From Gemmatimonadota bacterium (GTDB lineage: Bacteria; Gemmatimonadota; Gemmatimonadetes; Palauibacterales; Palauibacteraceae): DNA of 26,594 bases. The position numbers and the translations under genes were made by a program. The stretch lies in the NCBI GenBank assembly GCA_039588275.1, contig JBDHAC010000052.1, positions 1-26,594 of the forward strand, read 5' to 3'. This document shows, piece by piece, positions 16,003 to 26,594 of this stretch. Every line of letters starts with the position of its first letter. Position 1 is the first letter of the stretch. The notes under the pieces are model-generated. The model was not told the DNA's origin. It did not search any database and worked only from the letters and a program-made list of their open reading frames with translations.

Positions 16003-16737
16003 CTACCCGGTCGACACCGGCGTCAGGCGCGCCAGGTATTCGCCGCTCTCCTCCGCGAGCAGCACTTTGCACTCCCAGCCGCCCAGCGCCGTATGGTGCT
16101 CCAGCGTCCGTGCATCGACGTGCAACCAGCTGCAGTAGGGTCCGACCCGATCCTCGAATTCGAACTGCACCCGCGTCTCTCCTACGTACCTACCGGCTTC
16201 CCGATTGGCCTCGTGATAGGCGAGATGCTCTGGATCGTCCGTGCGGCGCACGTCCAGCGAATCGGTGAGCAGCTGCCCGTCTTTGCCGGTCAACCGACGC
16301 GTCCGGACGAGGAAGCTTCGTAGCCCGGAGAGATCTCCCACAATCCCGATGCCGTGCCCCAGCATCAGCAACGTGTCGAACGGTCCTCCCTCGAAATCGA
16401 GAACGTCGACACAGCGCACATCGCTCAACCCGCGCTCGATCATGATATCCACCGCATCGGGGTTGATGTCCAGCGCCGTGACCCTCCGGCCTTCCGATTC
16501 CAGGAAGAGGCTGTGCAGCCCGCTCCCGGCACCGATGTCCAGCACGCGCCCGCGACAGTGTTTCAGCGCCATCACCTCGATGGGCCAGAATTCATCGGGC
16601 GAGCGAAAGAACAGGCTCGCCGGCAGGAACGCTTCGACGCCGTCGTCGCGTCGGACCAGGAGCTGCGCCCCGACGTCGCCGCGAAAGTACGCGCGGAGCG
16701 CGAGCCCGTGCGGGACCATCGACTCGGGGTCCATCAC
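16003..16737 (-). CDS. Class I SAM-dependent methyltransferase
   Basis: GRVLDIGAGSG, VTALDI, FDTLLMLGHGIG. Confidence 0.85.
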   Translation of the reverse strand: MMDPESMVPHGLALRAYFRGDVGAQLLVRRDDGVEAFLPASLFFRSPDEFWPIEVMALKHCRGRVLDIGAGSGLHSLFLESEGRRVTALDINPDAVDIMIERGLSDVRCVDVLDFEGGPFDTLLMLGHGIGIVGDLSGLRSFLVRTRRLTGKDGQLLTDSLDVRRTDDPEHLAYHEANREAGRYVGETRVQFEFEDRVGPYCSWLHVDARTLEHHTALGGWECKVLLAEESGEYLARLTPVSTG

Positions 16738-16991: not shown

Positions 16992-17018
16992 ATCCCTGTC
17001 TGGACTGGACCGGGGCTC

Positions 17019-17783
17019 TCAAGGGTCGCGACGACGCTGTTGCAGCAGCCACTCCCATAGCGCTGGGTCCTCGTACGTCTGCGTCCAGGCGTCGTGGCCG
17101 ACCCCTGGGTAGATAGTCAGCTCGACCTCGTTCCCGCACCCTTCGAGCTGCCGTGCCACCTCTCGGGAGAGCCGGGCCGGAACCACTTCATCGAGCTCGC
17201 CGTGAAACACGCGGATCGGGACCCCCATGAACGGGCACCACCCGAGCAGAGCGGAGGCCTCGCCGCCGCTGATCGCGACGATCGCGGCGAACAGATCGGG
17301 GTGGTCGGCCGCGAGGTCGAAGGCGCCGAAGGCTCCCATGCTGAGACCCGTGAGGTAGACGCGCTCGCGGTCCACCCGAAGCTCCGACATGAGGTGCTCC
17401 AGAAGTCGGTACAGCGATCGCGCCGACCACCACCCGCCCTCGGCCTGCTGTGGCGACACGACGATGAACGGGAACGCTTCGCCTGACTCGATCAGCTTGG
17501 GTGGGCCGTGGATGGCCACGAGCCCGAGGTCGCTCCCGCGCTCGCCGGCCCCGTGAAGGAACAACAACAGGGGCCAGGTCTCCCGGGATTCGCCGTAACC
17601 GTCAGGCAGATACAGCAGGTAGCGGATCTCCTCGGTGCTGGTGAGCCGCTGCCCCTGATGGCGTTCGATCCCGCTCTGGACGACGAGCGGCGCGCATGCG
17701 AGCGCCGGGATCCATGAGGCCAAAGCCATCCCGGTGATTAGCCGCAGGCACCGCGGGTGCAACCCCGGGTATCGCGGCCTCAT
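17019..17783 (-). CDS. Exported alpha/beta hydrolase (predicted peptidase/esterase, COG4099-like)
   Basis: YLLYLPDGY, PLLLFLHGAGERG, GLSMG nucleophile, FHGELDEVVP, GHDAW; TGATG overlap; possible lipobox ALAC. Confidence 0.87.
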   Translation of the reverse strand: MRPRYPGLHPRCLRLITGMALASWIPALACAPLVVQSGIERHQGQRLTSTEEIRYLLYLPDGYGESRETWPLLLFLHGAGERGSDLGLVAIHGPPKLIESGEAFPFIVVSPQQAEGGWWSARSLYRLLEHLMSELRVDRERVYLTGLSMGAFGAFDLAADHPDLFAAIVAISGGEASALLGWCPFMGVPIRVFHGELDEVVPARLSREVARQLEGCGNEVELTIYPGVGHDAWTQTYEDPALWEWLLQQRRRDP

Positions 17784-18283
17784 CAAGGTGTTTCCGGCAG
17801 CGGACTCGACCAGTGCAGGTCGCGCAGCCGCCATCCCATGGGCGTGTGCACCGCCAGGCCCGTGAAGTAGCCCCGGAAGCGCAGCTCGCTCCCCGCAGTG
17901 TCCGTGAGCACCTCGCGATATGAGGCGCCCAGCACGGCGGCTCCTGGAGAGAGCGGATCAACCCGCATGTCTTCCCAGACGAGCTCCATGTCCGCGATCC
18001 CGGGTGCGAAGCCGCGCACGAAGCTCGTGGCAGAGTCGATGCTCGGGAACACGAGATTCCCGTCTGACGCCATGAAGAACTCAGGGCCATCGAGGAAGTA
18101 CGACAGCCACGCCGTCGGGCCGTCTCGTTCCAGATCACGGGCGATCGCCGCGGCCATATCGCTGACGCTGTCCTGGATGGCGGCGGCGTGAGCCGGGTCG
18201 AGCGAATCCGGGACGGCGTTCTGGCAGGCGAGCAGCGACAGCAGAGCGGCCGAGACCAGCGCGAGGCGAACCGAGAACCGCAT
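17783..18283 (-). CDS. NTF2/SnoaL-like (DUF4440-type) lipoprotein
   Basis: Signal MRFSVRLALVSAALLSLLAC; VDPLSPGAAV; GWRLRDLHWS C-terminus; GGAGGAG RBS. Confidence 0.72.
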   Translation of the reverse strand: MRFSVRLALVSAALLSLLACQNAVPDSLDPAHAAAIQDSVSDMAAAIARDLERDGPTAWLSYFLDGPEFFMASDGNLVFPSIDSATSFVRGFAPGIADMELVWEDMRVDPLSPGAAVLGASYREVLTDTAGSELRFRGYFTGLAVHTPMGWRLRDLHWSSPLPETP

Positions 18284-18299
18284 CAAGAGCTCCTCCGCG

Positions 18300-18869
18300 T
18301 CATGTCGAGCCGCTGCGGTCGGAATGCCCGGAGGTGGAAGCTGGTGGCTTAGGGAAGAACATCGGCACCCGCTTCCGGTACTCGACGTAGCTCGCTCCAA
18401 AGCGTCGCTCGAGCTCGAGCTCTTCCACCCGTTTCAACTCGATCGCGTTCGCGGCCACGAACAGCGGGGTCCAGACGACGACGATCGAGAGAGAATGGAG
18501 AAGAAAGCCGAGCCCGAACAGGCAGGCGAAGGCGCCGGTGAGCATCGGATTACGCGTCCAGGCGTAGAGTCCTGTCACCACTAGCTGGCGCGGCGGATTG
18601 AAGGGAACCGGCGTGCCTTTCGCCTGTGCGAACAGTGCCACGCACGAGCCGCAGAGCAGGAGGCCTGCCGCCAGGAGGACGGTTCCAATCACGGAGCCCG
18701 CGGCGCCGGGCAGCAGGCGCGGCATGCCGACCACGCGGTCCGTCAGCAACCCTGCGAGAACCACCAGGAGCAGCAGGCTCGAGAACACGACGAGTCCGAC
18801 GGGGGTGAGCCACGAGCGCCGACGCGCGGGACCTGTGGCTATCGAGTGGAACAGGTCGACCAGGCTCAT
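18300..18869 (-). CDS. Second ICMT/PEMT-family membrane methyltransferase
   Basis: KGTPVPFNPPRQLVVTGLYAWTRNPM, EELELERRFGASYVEYRKRVPMFFP. Confidence 0.87.
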   Translation of the reverse strand: MSLVDLFHSIATGPARRRSWLTPVGLVVFSSLLLLVVLAGLLTDRVVGMPRLLPGAAGSVIGTVLLAAGLLLCGSCVALFAQAKGTPVPFNPPRQLVVTGLYAWTRNPMLTGAFACLFGLGFLLHSLSIVVVWTPLFVAANAIELKRVEELELERRFGASYVEYRKRVPMFFPKPPASTSGHSDRSGST

Positions 18870-18934
18870 TTGCCCTTCACATCCTCAACGGATCGTTCTC
18901 GCGAGTGACGTCGACAGGAATCGCTGACGAAACG

Positions 18935-19141
18935 CTACTCCGTCGACTCTCCGACCGTCGGCAGCGCATCGAGCACCTTGGTGATCACCTGCTTGCGCTG
19001 TTTGAGCATTGCTCGGAAATCGAAGCTGTCGGTGTCGGCGATCTCCATGCGCAGGTCCGAAAGGTAGCTCTCCAGAACGTGCCGCAGCTCGTCGATCTCG
19101 TCTCCTGTCAAATCTAGATCCAGCACGGTAGCCGTCTCCAT
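18935..19141 (-). CDS. Small helical hypothetical protein
   Basis: Amphipathic LDLTGDEIDELRHVLESYLSDLRMEIADTD..FRAMLK; coding-like codon usage. Confidence 0.65.
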   Translation of the reverse strand: METATVLDLDLTGDEIDELRHVLESYLSDLRMEIADTDSFDFRAMLKQRKQVITKVLDALPTVGESTE

Positions 19142-19213
19142 CGAGTTTCAGCGGTGTGCGAGGGTTGTCCTCAAGGCCCAATTAAGCCCTCTGTCAGCCG
19201 CTCGCAAGACGGC

Positions 19214-19465
19214 TCATTCCGCAGCGTCCTCGCTTTTCAGTGCGGCGAGCAGGAGGAGGATGCCGACCCCACCGATGAACAAGCCGCCTGCTATGGAGAA
19301 CGTGGGTCCGAGCAGGCCGAGTAGACCGACGATACCGATGAGCGACAGCGCCGCGCCGACCACGATTCGATTCTTGCGACGGCCCGAGCGCCACGCGATG
19401 AGGACCGCGGCGAGCGACGAGACGATCAACAGAATCGGTACCACGGACAGCCACAAGCGCATCAT
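19214..19465 (-). CDS. Small 3-TM membrane protein
   Basis: Three hydrophobic segments; starts 1 nt after the upstream stop. Confidence 0.6.
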   Translation of the reverse strand: MMRLWLSVVPILLIVSSLAAVLIAWRSGRRKNRIVVGAALSLIGIVGLLGLLGPTFSIAGGLFIGGVGILLLLAALKSEDAAE

Positions 19466-19466
19466 C

Positions 19467-20243
19467 TCACGCCGCTCCGGATCCCAACTCGCATTGCAGC
19501 AGCTTCCGGAACTTGTTGTCGCTCATGAGCTCGTGCGTGATCAGCCGACCGTGCAGGAAGGCGCCGAACGTGCCGAAGGGAGATGCGGCATCGTGCGCGC
19601 TCTCGACCGTAGTCAGCTCTCTCGTCGTGACTGGCAGGTCGGGCTCGCGTGCCACCGCGGACATGTTGCGGAGACAATCGGAGACGAAGGGGCACTGGTG
19701 CACGTACTCGAAGTGCACCCCTTCGACCTGGGATACCGTTCCCCGCCTCGCTCGAGCGGCGAAGCGGGGCGGGGGGGCATCTTCGGTCGCTCGATAGCAT
19801 ACGAGGTCGAAACCGGTGTCGGTGTGTTCGACGAGATCGAAGCCTTGATGTAGATAGAATCGGGTGTCGGTCAGGTACGGGCGCCGGCCGCTGACCGCGA
19901 CGACGCCCCGACGCTCGCCGACATCGTCGAGGCAGTACTCGAGCAATTCGCGACCCAGCCCCCGGCCCTGATAACGCCCCGATACCCACAGGCAGTGGAT
20001 GACGAGGTAATCCGGGGCCACGACCGGCCGCCAGGCGGCCTCGGCGGGTGCGTATTCGATGAACACCTTGCCGCGCACATCGTATTTTCGGAACACGAGG
20101 CCCTGCTTGAAGCCGCACGACAAGAAGGCCTTCTTCCGGTCCACTCCCTCCTGGTGCTGCTTCCCTGCGATCGCACAGCAGATGTGTTCTCGTTCGATGT
20201 TTGCGGGTGTCAGATTCAGGAACCCGGGCTCAGCGCCGCTCAT
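19467..20243 (-). CDS. YoaP-family GNAT N-acetyltransferase
   Basis: NIEREHICCAI, RGKVFIEYAPAE.AWRP, IHCLWVSG.YQGRGLG, HQCPF, SPFGTFGAFLHG..ITHE. Confidence 0.85.
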   Translation of the reverse strand: MSGAEPGFLNLTPANIEREHICCAIAGKQHQEGVDRKKAFLSCGFKQGLVFRKYDVRGKVFIEYAPAEAAWRPVVAPDYLVIHCLWVSGRYQGRGLGRELLEYCLDDVGERRGVVAVSGRRPYLTDTRFYLHQGFDLVEHTDTGFDLVCYRATEDAPPPRFAARARRGTVSQVEGVHFEYVHQCPFVSDCLRNMSAVAREPDLPVTTRELTTVESAHDAASPFGTFGAFLHGRLITHELMSDNKFRKLLQCELGSGAA

Positions 20244-20250
20244 GTCGCCT

Positions 20251-20838
20251 TCATGACTCCGAGCTCAAGTGTGCGAGCAACGTCTCGCCACGCGGTGACA
20301 GCCGATACCCAATCTCGAGGCTTTCCGTGAGCCCCAGACCCTTGAGCTTTCGGACGTTCGCCTTGAAGCGTTTCGTCTCCTGCCCGACGGTCTCCGCGAG
20401 GTCGGCTGCCCGTACCGCCGGCTTTTGATCAATGAGCTGCAATACCGAAAGCGTCCACGGCCCCGAGGTGCTGGCCGCGTCCCAACGCGCGAGCCGTGAC
20501 CTCAGTTGATCCAACTCTTCGACGGTACGCGGAACCCTGGCCCTGAGCTCGATGCGTGGGTCGGGACCTGCGAGATGAAAGGAGACTCGGTAGACGGTGC
20601 CGTCGGGGCGTGTCGAAAGGGCGGCATGCAGACTCCGGAGATCAGAGTGACCGGCAACCCGCGCATCCTCCTCGGAGATGTCCTCGAGCCCGATCGGCTC
20701 CACGCTGTCGATCGACAGGACGCCGACCGAGGTGGTCAACGTGCCGCCTGTGCGTACGGTGGGTTTTCGCCAGCGCCGGAAGGCCAGCGTGACCTTGCCT
20801 TCAGCTACAGCCGCGAGGGTGGCCTGTTTGAGCAGCAT
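20251..20838 (-). CDS. ASCH-like domain + C-terminal winged-helix protein
   Basis: GKVTLAFRRWRKPTVRTGG, ISEEDARVAG, DPRIELR, FKANVRKLKGLGLTESLEIGYRLSPRG; start set at ATG 20838. Confidence 0.75.
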   Translation of the reverse strand: MLLKQATLAAVAEGKVTLAFRRWRKPTVRTGGTLTTSVGVLSIDSVEPIGLEDISEEDARVAGHSDLRSLHAALSTRPDGTVYRVSFHLAGPDPRIELRARVPRTVEELDQLRSRLARWDAASTSGPWTLSVLQLIDQKPAVRAADLAETVGQETKRFKANVRKLKGLGLTESLEIGYRLSPRGETLLAHLSSES

Positions 20839-20887
20839 CGCGAATCTCGCCCTCGTGGCCGTTTGGAGAGCTGTGCGGCGTGCGCGC

Positions 20888-21064
20888 CTAGGCGTCTCGC
20901 ATTGCGGCCAACACCTGCTCCTGGAGCTCGGGCGTGACCTCATCAATCCCGTGCGCCTTGTGAGCGTGATCGGCAACCATCTCGAGCAGCTCCTCCTCTG
21001 TCTCGGCCCATGCCTCGTAATCGCAATCGAGCCCGACGTCGGCGCAACGGATCTGCTTAGCCAA
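20888..21064 (-). CDS. DUF1059-family small metal-binding protein (58 aa, not in the ORF track)
   Basis: Hand translation MAKQIRCADVGLDCDYEAWAETEEELLEMVADHAHKAHGIDEVTPELQEQVLAAMRDA*; TTG start with a GGGAGG RBS; C-x6-C..H-x4-H. Confidence 0.88.
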   Translation of the reverse strand: MAKQIRCADVGLDCDYEAWAETEEELLEMVADHAHKAHGIDEVTPELQEQVLAAMRDA

Positions 21065-21198
21065 TTCAACCTCCCGGTTCGGGTGTGACCGCCCTCCGTA
21101 CGCTTACTAACAAGAGGAGCCCGGGTCCAGGGCTCGCGCATTCGCGGGGGCGGGCAGGCCGGCCACAGCCAGGCCAGTGGTCGCGATCCGCGCTCTCC

Positions 21199-21792
21199 TC
21201 AGGGGCGGTTAGCGCAGAACCGGCCGCTCGCCTCTTCCCCCTCCACGCTGCCGCTATGCCACTCGCCCGCGAGTCCACCGGCACCAGACTCTCGAACCAT
21301 GAGCGCCATGTAGGTGCCGTCGAAGCGAACCTGACCGCGTCTGTTCGCCTCGGCCCCGAAACGCAGGGTGAGGCCCGGCGGGACGTCGGCCTGACCGGCT
21401 TGGGAGTAGCCGCCGACCCCGGGCGCCCCGGGGTCGGTGCTCCCCAGCTCACCGGCGGCCGCTGCCCCCACCCGATCGAGGTCCACCTCGGCCGAGCCGT
21501 ACAGCGGCATCGACGCGCCGGGTAGCGGCGTGCCGTCCACGTCGGGCACCGCAAGCAGAATCTCACTTTGGGGGAACAGCGTCATCCGGCCGGCTACCGT
21601 TGCACCGACCTCTGGACCGGAAGTCGCATACAGCGTGATCTCGTACTCACCGGTCAGATCGGTCGGGTTGGCGACGCGGTCGCCGACGACACACGCGGCC
21701 CAGGCGACCCACGTGGATCCCGTCCCGGGGCGCCGGATGCAACTGGCGAACGCGACTGAAGCGCACATCAGGGGCAATAGGAAGCGGACCAT
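21199..21792 (-). CDS. Hypothetical exported protein / lipoprotein
   Basis: Signal-like MVRFLLPLMCASVAFASC; beta-rich body (LTGEYEITLYAT, LAGEW, GRFCA). Confidence 0.65.
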   Translation of the reverse strand: MVRFLLPLMCASVAFASCIRRPGTGSTWVAWAACVVGDRVANPTDLTGEYEITLYATSGPEVGATVAGRMTLFPQSEILLAVPDVDGTPLPGASMPLYGSAEVDLDRVGAAAAGELGSTDPGAPGVGGYSQAGQADVPPGLTLRFGAEANRRGQVRFDGTYMALMVRESGAGGLAGEWHSGSVEGEEASGRFCANRP

Positions 21793-21810
21793 GGCAGGAG
21801 TCCGGGCCAC

Positions 21811-23076
21811 CTAGAAGTCCCTGATCAGATCGATGCGGCCGCTCGCGTCGACGCGGTAGAGCGGTCCTTGTAGGATATCGTTGCGGAGCGGCAGCTTGGG
21901 GGATCGCGCGAGCCCCGAAGCGGCGAAGGGCACCGTGTATTCCTCGGCGGCGGTCAAATCCACTTCGTATCCCATGTCACCCAGCGACGCTACGGTGACG
22001 ACGCTGAGCGGGTTCGGTCCGTCGTCGACGAACCCGGTCATCAGCTCCGACCCCATTACGCGCTCGCGCCAATGTACGAAGCGCGTTCCGCCCCCGCCCT
22101 CGTCTTCGACCGGCACCTTCTTGCTCACGAGCGGCTCGCCGCCAGCCGCATCGAAGGCCGCGCGGGCCTGAGGGCCGGTGAAGTGTGGGTCTTCGCCCTG
22201 CGCGCCGCTCGTCTCGGCGACCAGGCCGAGATCATCCCACAGCCCGCCGATCCCCAAAACGTGCCCCATCTCGTGCACGATGATCTCGTCCAATCGGCCG
22301 GCCAACTCGAGGTCGAGGAGATCCTCGGAGTCGAACCGCATTCGGCCGATCAGCGGTAGCCCGTTCGCGCTTCGAATCACACACGGTCCGGCAGAGCCGA
22401 GCACGCCGCCGCGGCCGTCGATAGCGACCACATCGGCCAGAATCAGCAAGTCGTCGATCGTCTCGTCGATGGGCTGCGAGGATCCACAGAATCCGGTGTC
22501 TTCGTTAATCGTGATATCCGTGAGATCGCCGGAGATCACGGCTTGCCAGCGTGCCTCGGCCACGCGGAACGCCTGTTGCTGCTCGGTGGTCGGGTTTCCC
22601 GCATTGAAGCGAACCACGATGTCGTATACGGCGGGCGGAATCGTGCTGACCGCGAAGAAGAAGATGGGGGCGACGCCGTCTACTCGCGCGCGCAGACGGT
22701 GCGTACCCGGGTCGGGACCGAGCGTCCAGCTCCCGGCGTTCGCCAGGCCGTCCACATCCGTCACGGCGGAGGGTCTCGTGACGGTGCCCGCTCCGGCGCC
22801 CGGCTCGAAGCTCACCTCGACCGCGGCAACGGGGTCGCCACGGCCGTCCACCACGCGCACGGTCGGTGATGCGTCCAGGGGGCGCCCGGCGATCCCGGTC
22901 TGGTTCGCGCCCTGAACGACCTCCAGCGCTGCCGGCACGCCGGCCGGCGGCGCCGGAGGCTGGTTACCGCCGTTCGGCTCGGTGGTGCCCCCGCAGGCGG
23001 CGCCGAACAGAGCGGCAAGCACGATCAATTGGGACGCGCGAATCGGGTTCTGATGCGCGTTCATCGGTGACGGCAC
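21811..23076 (-). CDS. Leishmanolysin-like (M8) zinc metallopeptidase lipoprotein with an N-terminal Ig-like domain
   Basis: Lipobox-like FGAAC; Ig-like VRVVDGRGDPVAAVEVSF..TDVDGLA..WTLG; IDGRGGVLGSAGPC, HEMGHVLG, HWRE, ELMTG Met-turn. Confidence 0.88.
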   Translation of the reverse strand: MPSPMNAHQNPIRASQLIVLAALFGAACGGTTEPNGGNQPPAPPAGVPAALEVVQGANQTGIAGRPLDASPTVRVVDGRGDPVAAVEVSFEPGAGAGTVTRPSAVTDVDGLANAGSWTLGPDPGTHRLRARVDGVAPIFFFAVSTIPPAVYDIVVRFNAGNPTTEQQQAFRVAEARWQAVISGDLTDITINEDTGFCGSSQPIDETIDDLLILADVVAIDGRGGVLGSAGPCVIRSANGLPLIGRMRFDSEDLLDLELAGRLDEIIVHEMGHVLGIGGLWDDLGLVAETSGAQGEDPHFTGPQARAAFDAAGGEPLVSKKVPVEDEGGGGTRFVHWRERVMGSELMTGFVDDGPNPLSVVTVASLGDMGYEVDLTAAEEYTVPFAASGLARSPKLPLRNDILQGPLYRVDASGRIDLIRDF

Positions 23077-23195
23077 GACTCCTCATGAAAAAGCCTACGA
23101 TCGGGCTGTTATACACCGGTCGGCGCTCCTGTGCCGCCATCACCCCAATTCACTCACCCGTCTCAAGATCGGAGCAGAGCGGGATGAACCGCACA

Positions 23196-23987
23196 TCAAG
23201 CCTCGCCCGGCTTGGACGCCGTCAACATGACCGCCTTGACCCCGTACGCCTCGGCGGCGTTCTGCGTCGACTCCTTCCGGAATCGGAATCGCGGCACCAC
23301 CGCGGACCGCACCTTCTCGAAACCGGACTCCTCGAGCAGTCTGAACATCTCTCCTTCCAGGAGAGCGCCCCCGATTCAGGCCGCCCACAGCCTGGGATCG
23401 TTCACGATGGATTGTGACAGCTGCTTGGCGCTCACGATATCGGTGATCGATATGCGACCGCCGGGCCTCAGCACCCGAAACATCTCCTCCACGACCTTGC
23501 GCTTCTGGAAGGACAGGTTGATCACGCCGTTCGAGATCACGACGTCGACGCAGGCGTCCGGGAGCGGGATGTCTTCCATGCGGCCCTCGTGGCACTCCAT
23601 CGACGAGCCGCCGGCTGCCGCGTGTGCTTGCGCCTTCAGACACATAGACGGGTTGAGGTCCACGCCGATCACTCTGCCGGTCGGACCCGTGCGCCTGCTC
23701 GCGACGATCGCGTCGAGACCGGCCCCGCTTCCCAGATCGAGTACGGTCTCGCCCGGCTGAATGTCCGCGCGCAGGTGCGGATTTCCCACGCCCGCGAAGG
23801 AGTCGACAGCACCCGGCGGCGCGCGGTCGAGCCACTCCGACGGATACTCGAACAGCTCGGCCGCCTGGCGTCCGTGGTAGAAATGGAACTCACCGGACGG
23901 ATCGTCGGCGACTTCTTGGTACATGCGAATGATCTCGTCCTTGAGCACTTCTTCCAAGGAAGCTTGCGCGGCCGCCGCATCGGTCAT
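23196..23987 (-). CDS. Selenocysteine-containing ArsM/AS3MT-like SAM-dependent methyltransferase (263 aa, Sec204 encoded by TGA at 23378-23376)
   Basis: SFAGVGNP, PGETVLDLGSGAGLD, VVISNGVINL, RVLRPGGR, then LWAA-TGA-IGGALLEGEMFRLLEESGFEKVRSAVVPRFRFRKESTQNAAEAYGVKAVMLTASKPGEA* (stop at 23198-23196). The TGA sits at the Cys of the ArsM W-x-x-C-I-x-G-A motif, and a SECIS-like hairpin follows. Confidence 0.88.
23342..23378 (-). promoter_or_regulatory. Bacterial SECIS element candidate
   Basis: mRNA UGAAUCGGGGGCG-CUCUCCU-GGA-AGGAGAG-AUGUUCA. A perfect 7-bp upper stem (23365-23349) starts at +11 after UGA, with G in the apical loop at +18/19. UGAA can also pair with UUCA as a lower stem. Confidence 0.75.
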
Positions 23988-23989
23988 TG

Positions 23990-24493
23990 TCAGCTCTCCT
24001 CTGATCGCTCTGCCGTGTCCGGGTTGGACTGCTCTATGTGATTCAGGCGCGAGATCCCGCCCCGCCGGCTCATCGCCGACGACTCGACCAACCGGCGGAA
24101 ATCCTCGTCGGAGCCTTCCAGAAATGCCGAGCCGTACCTCTCCAGGTCGGCTCGCAGATGTCGGAAGCCATCGCGCGGATCGTCCGAGAACCCGGGATAC
24201 TCTCGGGGCGCCCTCGATCCTGCCACGGCGTCGACGTATTCCCGGTGGGCCAGCGATACGTGTCCAACGTGGTATCTCACGAGTCCCAGCGAGCGGCGAT
24301 AATGGAGCTCCAGCCTCCGGCTCCCACGCGTGTAATCGGCGCGCGTGTAGTGACCACCGGATCCCCTACCCGCATCCCCGGCCAGGAAGCGGAAGCCGGC
24401 GGCCTCGAGAACGGGGTCGAGCACCTCGCGTCCGAACGCGAGCAGACTCTCAGGATCCGCTTCCCCGCCAGATCGCCCGCCGGGCTGAATCAC
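23990..24493 (-). CDS. Hypothetical protein
   Basis: GTG start overlaps the upstream stop (GTGA); stop lies 2 nt before the ArsM-like ATG; protein-like GRGSGG..RRLELHYRRSLGLVRYH..YPGFSDDP. Confidence 0.65.
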   Translation of the reverse strand: MIQPGGRSGGEADPESLLAFGREVLDPVLEAAGFRFLAGDAGRGSGGHYTRADYTRGSRRLELHYRRSLGLVRYHVGHVSLAHREYVDAVAGSRAPREYPGFSDDPRDGFRHLRADLERYGSAFLEGSDEDFRRLVESSAMSRRGGISRLNHIEQSNPDTAERSEES

Positions 24494-25113
24494 CTGCGGA
24501 AGACGCCGTACACGAACGCCTGCTTGGCTCCCGAAGGCGTCGAATGTAGCTCCTCGGTCGCCTCCAGTAGCGTGAGCTCGGACCCTAGCTCCTCCGCCAG
24601 CGCTTCGGGCGAGTAGCGGACGATGTCCAGCCCACTGCACCTCGGTGGCCCATCGGGCCCGAACGTGGCGACGATGGCGTGGCCGCCGCTGTCCAGGGCG
24701 CTCAACAGACTGCTCACGTACCTGCGGCGGTCCTCCGGATCGGTAAGAAAGTGAAACACCGCCCGGTCGTGCCACACATCCCACCGGTGCGGCAAGTCAA
24801 ACCTCGTCACATCCGCCTCGAACCATTCCACCAATCGCGCCTGCTTGCCGAGCCGATCCTTCACTCGCGCGAGGGCTTCCGAAGCGACGTCGAGGACGCC
24901 AATCGAACGATATCCGAGATCCAGGAGGTGATCCGTCAGGAGCGACGCGCCGCCGCCCACGTCCAGCACACGCTGACTCAGGTCGCCGCGGGTCACCGCC
25001 TGGGTGAGTCGTATCGAGAGCTCCGGGTTCGCTTGATACCAGCTGACCTCGTCCGGCTCTCGCGTTTCGTAGATGGTCTCCCAGTGGGCCTTCCGTTCCT
25101 TCAGGTCGGGCAT
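24490..25113 (-). CDS. Class I SAM-dependent methyltransferase (TPMT/TehB-like)
   Basis: HWETIY..VSWYQ, VLDVGGGAS, WHDRAVFHFL, ATFGPDGPPRCSGL, HSTPSG..QAF; GGAGG RBS. Confidence 0.85.
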   Translation of the reverse strand: MPDLKERKAHWETIYETREPDEVSWYQANPELSIRLTQAVTRGDLSQRVLDVGGGASLLTDHLLDLGYRSIGVLDVASEALARVKDRLGKQARLVEWFEADVTRFDLPHRWDVWHDRAVFHFLTDPEDRRRYVSSLLSALDSGGHAIVATFGPDGPPRCSGLDIVRYSPEALAEELGSELTLLEATEELHSTPSGAKQAFVYGVFRR

Positions 25114-25261
25114 TCGTGCCCTCCTCCGCCAGCTCGCGATCTTCGAGGGTTTCGGCCGGATGGGGATGACGATAATCCTGGATACGATCCGCCGGAACCT
25201 CCGTCGCCGGACACGGGACTATCTGATGTCCGCGTCAGTGGACTCGAGCCCGGCCAGCAGA

Positions 25262-25879
25262 CTAGACCGGTGTCGCGGTGCCCCAGTAGTTGAAGCTGCC
25301 CGGGCGCCATCCAGGAATGTACATGGTGTCCAGATCGCGGATACGAAACCCGCCACCCTCGATGAGCTTCGGGATCGGGCGGTTGAGGTTGCACCCGCCT
25401 CCGAGCCGCCTCCAGATCGGGTTGAGGCGCTCTTGCCAGCGTCTGACGCTCGCGTCCGGCGCCACCCCATGCTCACAGAAAATCAGCTGACCCCTAGGCT
25501 TCAACACCCGAGCCATCTCCTGTAGGGCGGGTCGAGTCTCCGCGATGGTGCACAGGGTGTAGGTCACCAGCACCGTGTCCACACTCCCCGCCTCTAGCGG
25601 GATCTCATCCGCCGGCAGACCGATGAACTCGACCTCGAAACCCACGGGTCGCGCGGCACGCTGTGCACGCTTGGTCAACTCTGGCGAAGGCTCGAGACCC
25701 CAGAGCCTGGTCACCTTCGCGGCATCATAATACGGCAGGTTGAGACCGGAACCGATCCCGATCTCCAACACCCGCCCCTCGGCGAGCGGCACGACCTTCT
25801 CTCGCTGGCGCATGGTCGGCTTCGCGCTGCAGGCCATGTGTACCAGCCCGGGTAGGATGCACTTGCTGTAGAGTCCCAT
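25262..25879 (-). CDS. Class I SAM-dependent methyltransferase (METTL7/TMT1-like; MddH-like thiol S-methyltransferase candidate)
   Basis: GRVLEIGIGSGLNL, GLEPSPEL, SVDTVLVTYTLCTI, RVLKPRGQLIFCEHG, WRRLGGGCNLNR. Confidence 0.85.
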   Translation of the reverse strand: MGLYSKCILPGLVHMACSAKPTMRQREKVVPLAEGRVLEIGIGSGLNLPYYDAAKVTRLWGLEPSPELTKRAQRAARPVGFEVEFIGLPADEIPLEAGSVDTVLVTYTLCTIAETRPALQEMARVLKPRGQLIFCEHGVAPDASVRRWQERLNPIWRRLGGGCNLNRPIPKLIEGGGFRIRDLDTMYIPGWRPGSFNYWGTATPV

Positions 25880-25883
25880 GGTC

Positions 25884-26545
25884 TCACGCCCCCGGCACAC
25901 AAACGTCCAACACACTACGCAAATCGGGAATCGACGGGCTCGTCTCGTCCCGATCCGGCCTACGCTTCACCAGGACCGCCTGAAGACCGGCGTGGCGCGC
26001 GCCTTCGAGGTCGTCCACGATCGAATCGCCGACGTGCAGGGTTCTCTCCGGCGGGACGCCGAGCCGGCGGCAAGCCTCGTGGAAGATCTCGGGCTCGGGC
26101 TTGGCGAAGCCGATCTCCGCCGATGCAATTACGTGGTCCAACAGGTCGCCGATCCCGAGATCCGCGCAGAAATGCGCCAGCCCGCATTGCCAATTGGAGA
26201 CCAGCGCCACGTGGAAGCCCCGATGCGCCAGAGCTCCGCGGCATGATCCGCGGCGGCCCGACCCGAGACCCGGACATTGAGCCGGTCGAACACCAGCTGC
26301 GCGAAGCGATCCCGATGTCTCTTCCCCGGTTCGCCCGATTGGGCGGGGGAGTACTCACGGGCATGGGGCTCGAAGATATCGTACAGGATCTGGTGCTCCC
26401 ACGGATCAGATTCGAGCCCCGCGCGTTGAAGGTACTCCATCAGCATCACGCCACGACCGCGCCCGGCGCGGGGATACACCAGCGTATTGTAGAAGTCGAA
26501 CGTGACGGCCTCGATGTTCTCGTACGTCTCCAGCCATGCGTTCAC
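25884..26545 (-). pseudogene. HAD-superfamily hydrolase (subfamily IA, REG-2-like) split by a frameshift/deletion at ~26220
   Basis: Motif I TFDFYNTL is in frame 26545-26129. Motifs II-IV (ALVSNW, AKPEPEIF, HVGDSIVDD) are in frame 26210-25884. Junction reads ELWRI|GFHVALVSN. Confidence 0.8.
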
Positions 26546-26594
26546 GGGCTCAACCGTTCCGGACTCGTCGCTCGCCCCGGCACGACGAAGTGTG

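Follow-up and report, generated by a model that had tools for sequence, protein, structure and literature searches.

A selenocysteine-containing ArsM relative from Gemmatimonadota and its possible role in sulfane sulfur methylation

On the minus strand of a 26,594-nucleotide contig from a Gemmatimonadota bacterium (the window, that is, the whole stretch of DNA analyzed here), positions 23196-23987 hold the gene for a class I SAM-dependent methyltransferase of 263 amino acids with the ArsM fold, read through an in-frame TGA. Only one of the four conserved ArsM cysteine positions is kept, and it is occupied by selenocysteine (Sec). The question raised by this locus is what such a protein methylates. 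The reading favored here, tentatively and with a probability put somewhat short of even, is that of an ArsM-related single-Cys/Sec enzyme whose Sec would capture sulfane sulfur, which would be methylated by SAM and released as methanethiol, with arsenite not being the substrate.

The selenocysteine codon and the ArsM cysteine positions

The coding part of the gene spans 23199-23987 and is followed by the true stop codon, TGA at 23196-23198, while the database versions of the protein end at 203 amino acids. The internal TGA, at 23376-23378, is codon 204 and aligns opposite Cys224 of CmArsM. All 80 related genome loci, most of which carry Gemmatimonadota in their titles, have TGA at this codon, and in the same 80 loci the frame beyond it is conserved over 55-67 residues. 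A bacterial SECIS hairpin, with a 7-bp stem and a GGA loop 17 nt after the UGA, was located at 23349-23365 from covariation and a consensus model, and both spacing and loop match the bacterial SECIS model as outlined in section 5 of PMC13188914. At least six of the seven pairs are formed in 60 of 61 distinct Sec forms versus 0 of 90 Cys forms, and two pairs show compensatory changes (C-G/G-C and U-A/C-G swaps). The folding energy of the region is ordinary (z 0.5 to -1.7), so that support for the SECIS element comes from covariation. The source genome encodes tRNA-Sec, SelA and SelB. With a UGA conserved opposite a cysteine, a SECIS hairpin and the Sec machinery in the genome, the features by which bacterial selenoproteins are recognized, the reading of residue 204 as Sec is firm. 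Matches with apparent internal TAG codons do not have them at residue 204; both genes concerned encode Cys there.

The structure predicted for the Sec protein (pLDDT 95.6) is a class I SAM fold with an ArsM arsenic-binding subdomain, and its structural matches at ranks 1-12 are all ArsM/AS3MT chains. The sequence was aligned with CrArsM (5evj), CmArsM and solved ArsM chains. On the minus strand, GVGNP at 23778-23792 faces GCGNP or GCGST in the solved chains and puts Val67 at the position of CmArsM Cys72; SNGVINL at 23514-23534 faces SNCVINL or SNCVCNL and puts Gly154 where CmArsM has its second metalloid ligand, Cys174. CmArsM Cys44 has no counterpart, since residues 1-115 of the Sec protein contain no cysteine. 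Of the ArsM/AS3MT cysteine positions, 44, 72 and 174 are therefore missing and 224 is present, as Sec204, and the preliminary description was right both about the two altered motifs and about the last position as the only one left. A filter for ArsM that asks for at least three of the four conserved cysteines, as given in the available text of PMC5552862, excludes the protein, which has one.

The same description had asked whether the other cysteines reach the active site. None of them aligns with the arsenic site, and alignment and conservation together seem to rule out an alternative cysteine serving it. Cys116 (23640-23642, minus strand) lies in helix 113-125 of the Rossmann fold and faces a Leu of CmArsM, and Cys132 (23592-23594) lies in strand 131-134 and faces Phe; the 39 canonical ArsMs compared have Leu, Ala or Val at the first position and Phe at the second. 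All 103 matches that reach 70% identity have both residues, whereas the pair is found in none of 119 more distant members. In a class I fold such a helix and strand sit at the sheet edge away from the substrate site, and the two cysteines probably make up a structural pair of local importance. The third, Cys146 (23550-23552), is not conserved (2 of 80 related loci). Sixteen distant Sec forms are free of cysteine throughout the aligned part, which points to one selenol as the core of the group. The N-terminal motif F34-H35-F36 (23880-23888, minus strand) is common to this group, with His35 in 221 of 222 matches. It possibly closes the active site where ArsM carries its N-terminal cysteine.

Separation from canonical ArsM and the arsenite question

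The motif states of 150 listed representatives were mainly Cys/Cys/Cys or Val-or-Thr/Gly/Cys-or-truncated, and in a few residue 204 was neither Cys nor Sec. All 222 matches with Gly154 in the fetched loci, a number that stems from partly overlapping sets and does not stand for 222 independent genes, have Cys (91) or TGA (131) at 204, and none has Cys67. Trees were built from 62 one-Cys/Sec and 72 canonical rows. The quick tree needed two trait changes versus about 45 for shuffled labels, and FastTree, run without the trait columns and the N-terminus, gave the same two changes against about 45. The canonical side includes one row, P0209, that seems to represent an independent loss. Neither tree fixed the root or the sister of the subgroup to which the window gene belongs (hereafter the own subgroup). 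Against the NCBIfam profile NF008823 the Sec protein scored 205.1 bits versus a curated cut-off of 263, with all 10 scored one-Cys/Sec representatives below the cut-off and five of six canonical sequences passing it. The phylum samples gave top-tier matches in 39 of 251, 25 of 301 and 3 of 301 genomes, Cys forms also occur on haloarchaeal and alphaproteobacterial plasmids, and the viral contigs searched held no relative. The group is widespread rather than an oddity, and it separates from canonical ArsM in the trees. Three loci from unpublished genomes (L086, L087 and L092) entered an exploratory clustering and stand outside the neighbor and residue counts.

A Pfam scan of 38 of the window's 139 listed ORFs turned up no ars gene, nor did seeded tblastn of positions 17001-26594, in line with the earlier statement that arsR, arsC, acr3 and arsB are absent nearby. 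In a seeded search for Acr3, ArsC and ars-type ArsR, ars genes adjoined 27 of 39 canonical arsM loci versus 1 of 180 one-Cys/Sec loci (1 of 80 in the own subgroup, 0 of 80 in the FHFEMGR Cys subgroup and 0 of 20 of Acidobacteriota/Pseudomonadota type); one control locus that did not show the canonical pattern, L274, was left out of the canonical counts. On contig C13 of the source genome, arsR is immediately followed by a canonical arsM; genes of the Acr3 and ArsC types lie at other places in the genome. A second ArsM-type protein of 387 amino acids with the canonical cysteines is encoded outside the arsR-arsM operon (G000:C15:32855-34015). According to the portion of PMC6138428 available, As(III) methylation by CmArsM needs all four cysteines, and the Cys174-Cys224 pair constitutes the site of metalloid binding and is required even for MAs(III); of this site the Sec protein keeps one half only. 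Half-site, separate arsR-arsM operon and ars-poor context all favor the suspicion voiced in the preliminary description that the substrate may not be arsenite, and the Sec protein is probably not an arsenite methyltransferase. Its fold is like that of ArsM and its geometry probably so, and by cysteine content, profile score and context it falls outside the family.

Sulfur-handling neighbors and candidate substrates

The FHFEMGR Cys subgroup was represented by the best 80 of at least 591 confirmed metagenome stretches. In a seeded search any sulfur-handling gene was present in 49 of these 80 loci, and two or more in 18: DsrE in 25, rhodanese (with an ArsR-fused seed) in 20, an MFS subtype in 16, a persulfide-dioxygenase-like MBL protein in 15, DUF4395 in 8 and an SQR-like protein in 1. 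The MFS subtype and DUF4395 were counted as sulfur-linked by their company only, and the MBL and SQR names denote likenesses, as the proteins fall under the curated Blh and SQR cut-offs. A sulfur-handling gene was found in 10 of 80 loci of the own subgroup and 2 of 20 of the Acidobacteriota/Pseudomonadota type, and in the controls in 1 of 39 canonical arsM loci and 1 of 319 tiles of the own genome. The difference between the own subgroup and the canonical loci was not significant (p=0.10), and the neighbor p-values overstate, because the seeds were drawn from the counted loci themselves and related loci are not independent. Pfam annotation without seeds of the 122 nearest FHFEMGR neighbors put DsrE at the top (16), with rhodanese at 7, MBL at 6 and YeeE-type sulfur transport at 3; the 68 neighbors at canonical loci gave ArsR (13), GNAT (7) and Acr3-type (6), and the 140 neighbors in the own subgroup had no dominant family. 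The neighboring DsrE proteins are of several subtypes only 21-31% alike, which suggests repeated recruitment.

The link to sulfur is thus strong in the FHFEMGR subgroup but weak in the own subgroup, and some of the ten cases in the latter are loose, with the sulfur gene 4-5 kb off or a DedA-rhodanese fusion. Tight cases are L067, L062, L046, L057 and L071. At L067, DsrE, an SQR-like gene and the Sec gene are co-directional with gaps of 9 and 28 nt, and at L062 ArsR-rhodanese, MFS, DsrE and SQR-like genes lie upstream. A conserved operon was looked for in the own subgroup and none was found; the gene is mostly solitary. In the window no sulfur gene adjoins the Sec gene, and the source genome, 85.8% complete, gave one distant DsrE match and zero TusA matches.

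Among 30 chosen representatives, fusions to TusA (3), a NifS-like cysteine desulfurase (1, P0267) and DsbA-like domains (2) were found, in agreement with a sulfur role, along with MerC-like (2), DUF2652 (5), ArsR (1) and AhpD together with a canonical ArsM (1), which speak for other roles. In P0148, P0150, P0182, P0192 and P0248 the DUF2652 domain stands ahead of a methyltransferase domain of one-Cys/Sec type that ends just before residue 204. Fusions of a one-Cys methyltransferase to MerC-like membrane domains were seen in P0138 and P0164 by Pfam and in P0129 and P0140 by eye, one of the four having a Cys-rich tail.

Several further observations concern the surroundings of the gene and of its relatives. 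Two genes upstream of the Sec gene, a Methyltransf_11 protein (Pfam; 25262-25915, minus strand) presumably resembles thiol methyltransferases of the MddH/METTL7 type; only the closest locus, L001, was seen to share its neighborhood. Three more methyltransferases in the same minus-strand run, at 24490-25113, 16003-16737 and 18300-18869, are NodS-like, TehB-like and PEMT-like. The downstream gene at 21811-23076 (minus strand) encodes a lipoprotein-like protein with Big_1 and peptidase M8 (leishmanolysin-like) domains and was seen kept beside the Sec gene in L001 and L002. A small DUF1059 protein is encoded 2.1 kb downstream of the Sec gene (20888-21064, minus strand); in Haladaptatus (L083) DUF1059 precedes OsmC and a one-Cys methyltransferase, a likeness to the window that may be chance. 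Tblastn detected no counterpart of the haloarchaeal OsmC partner, either in the own genome or at the 80 loci of the own subgroup, and the own genome has six other OsmC-family genes. Two OsmC-like genes of the genome (G000:C18:92859-93149 and G000:C15:55343-55624) have an in-frame TGA in the motif GG-U-x-x-G-T-L and are further selenoproteins. In a recurrent module, seen at L085, L276 and L277, two one-Cys/Sec methyltransferase paralogues surround genes for an ECF sigma factor and an RsrA-like anti-sigma factor; a truncated globin occurs in L085 and L148.

The genes for DsrE, TusA, rhodanese, PDO and SQR in Bacillus licheniformis are clustered and serve to handle sulfane sulfur (excerpt of PMC9918477), and TPMT has been shown to methylate persulfides and polysulfides enzymatically (excerpt of PMC13089183). 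In the chemistry proposed here, Sec204 would take sulfane sulfur from polysulfide, a small-molecule persulfide or a carrier such as DsrE, TusA or rhodanese. The terminal sulfur of the resulting E-Se-S(-) would sit at the place of arsenic in ArsM and be methylated by SAM, after which a cellular thiol or a protein of the thioredoxin, DsbA or AhpD type would cleave E-Se-S-CH3, setting methanethiol free and regenerating the selenol. For such chemistry a single chalcogen ligand would be enough, which would explain the loss of the other cysteines. Of the substrates and intermediates suggested in the preliminary description, sulfur is favored by the neighborhoods and selenium kept as a variant, while the methyl-Sec intermediate is chemically less likely, since a selenoether is a poor methyl donor. 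Automethylation of AS3MT on Cys has been reported (PMC9013690, in the text available). Subgroups may differ in substrate. The broader proposal, a doubtful one at present, is that of an unrecognized, widespread ArsM-fold family that anchors sulfane sulfur on a single Sec or Cys and methylates it, by which bacteria of sediment and soil, and haloarchaea, would make methanethiol and DMS from carrier-delivered sulfur.

Selenium or tellurium could be the main substrate of the same one-selenol chemistry, with selenide, Se0 or glutathione selenopersulfide giving methylselenol or dimethylselenide. DsrE, TusA, rhodanese and NifS-like proteins can carry selenium too, and the NifS-like fusion P0267 would fit such a role. 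The TPMT paper has a section on the methylation of selenite-derived anions (PMC13089183). SQR-like and persulfide-dioxygenase-like neighbors, however, are sulfur-oxidation genes, and no selenium-utilization family was among the top 25 neighbor families, so this variant is considered unlikely. A methyltransferase for organoarsenicals that need one ligand, acting for instance on DMAs(III) to yield trimethylarsine species, or on MAs(III) whose second ligand is a small-molecule thiol, would suit the exclusively ArsM/AS3MT structural matches at the top ranks, the retained Cys224 position and the single fusions to AhpD plus canonical ArsM and to an ArsR domain. In addition, a lower-scoring ArsM-type match is present in 29 of the 36 published genomes that have the group, but that is close to the base rate (some match in 197 of 251 genomes), and with ars genes near just one of the 180 loci the reading is improbable. 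A similarly low probability is given to an enzyme of thiol/disulfide stress or soft metals, in which Sec would open a small disulfide or bind, for example, Hg, and the freed thiolate would be methylated. Genes for an ECF sigma factor and an RsrA-like anti-sigma factor adjoin 7 of 80 and 4 of 20 loci, OsmC is upstream in all three haloarchaeal plasmid loci viewed, and the MerC-like, DsbA-like and AhpD fusions point the same way; yet these contexts belong mainly to other subgroups and occur at none of the 80 loci of the own subgroup, and SAM delivers a methyl cation, which is ill-suited to methylating Hg(II). A true As(III) methyltransferase using one chalcogen and histidines, as proposed for Thermus TtArsM, for which As(III) methylation by means of a single Cys has been reported (bioRxiv 10.1101/2021.07.12.452139, in part), is very improbable even with His35 so widely retained, given the four-cysteine requirement of CmArsM, the lack of ars context, the arsR-arsM already present in the genome, and the distance of TtArsM, whose His ligands come from docking, from other ArsMs.

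Implications and comparison with known systems

If the sulfane-sulfur reading is true, the group would be a new methylating branch of sulfane-sulfur detoxification and a new microbial source of methanethiol and DMS, hidden in databases as truncated "arsenite methyltransferase". The ArsM scaffold would then serve two elements and offer a direct test of why Sec is used. Among 120 listed homologues, JGI gives at least 13 the name arsenite methyltransferase, and almost all stop at the UGA. For this reason arsM surveys that apply no cysteine filter may over-count arsenic methylators, a point that holds even if the sulfur reading fails.

The closest characterized systems are ArsM and AS3MT (CmArsM, CrArsM; NF008823 / PRK11873), with a best TM score of 0.75 to 6cx6_A at about 30% identity, and with the SAM motif, the SN-x-VINL strand and the W-x-x-C/U-x-x-G-A loop in common. 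The Sec protein differs from them in keeping one of the four cysteine positions, in its N-terminal FHF motif and in having no ars context. TtArsM of Thermus thermophilus, compared by its description in the available text, is likewise a single-Cys enzyme assigned to arsenite methylation, but it is evolutionarily distant and its Cys77 lies elsewhere in the sequence. TPMT, MddH, MddM1/MddM2 and TMT1A/B share the class I SAM fold and the proposed product class (methylated sulfide, persulfide, methanethiol); they are not of ArsM type, and the available portions of their papers describe no covalent enzyme-Cys/Sec anchor. The terms "arsenite" and "ArsM" occur zero times in the MddH and MddM papers, and MddH is defined at more than 45% identity. 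The closest structures of the Sec protein are those of ArsM.

A literature search, conducted mostly on records without full text, returned no paper on the one-Cys/Sec ArsM-like group, its lost cysteines or its sulfur context. Selenoproteins that combine ArsM with AhpD (NF041537), ArsM with DUF2284 (NF041536) or a methyltransferase with UXPK-star (NF047649) are listed under Haft and Tolstoy 2025 in a table of PMC13188914. These three models align with the group from about residue 13 over near-equal spans and may on that ground belong to it. The Sec protein scores well under their cut-offs (199 versus 510, 175 versus 575 and 179 versus 460 bits, respectively), and unlike them, with their extra domains or second Sec, it has one Sec and no extra domain. 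Also catalogued is a Sec-containing "arsenite methyltransferase" with the motif UxxG, credited to Fomenko et al. 2007 in the available text of PMC13188914 and represented by eight GOS sequences in that of PMC2398784. It resembles the Sec protein in being ArsM-like with Sec in UxxG. Compared by description, the available parts of both catalogues place the family under arsenite methylation and are silent on the lost cysteines. Sec-bearing ArsM-like proteins have thus been catalogued since 2007, and Fomenko 2007 and Haft and Tolstoy 2025, both considered here as cited in PMC13188914, may bear on the novelty of the group described here.
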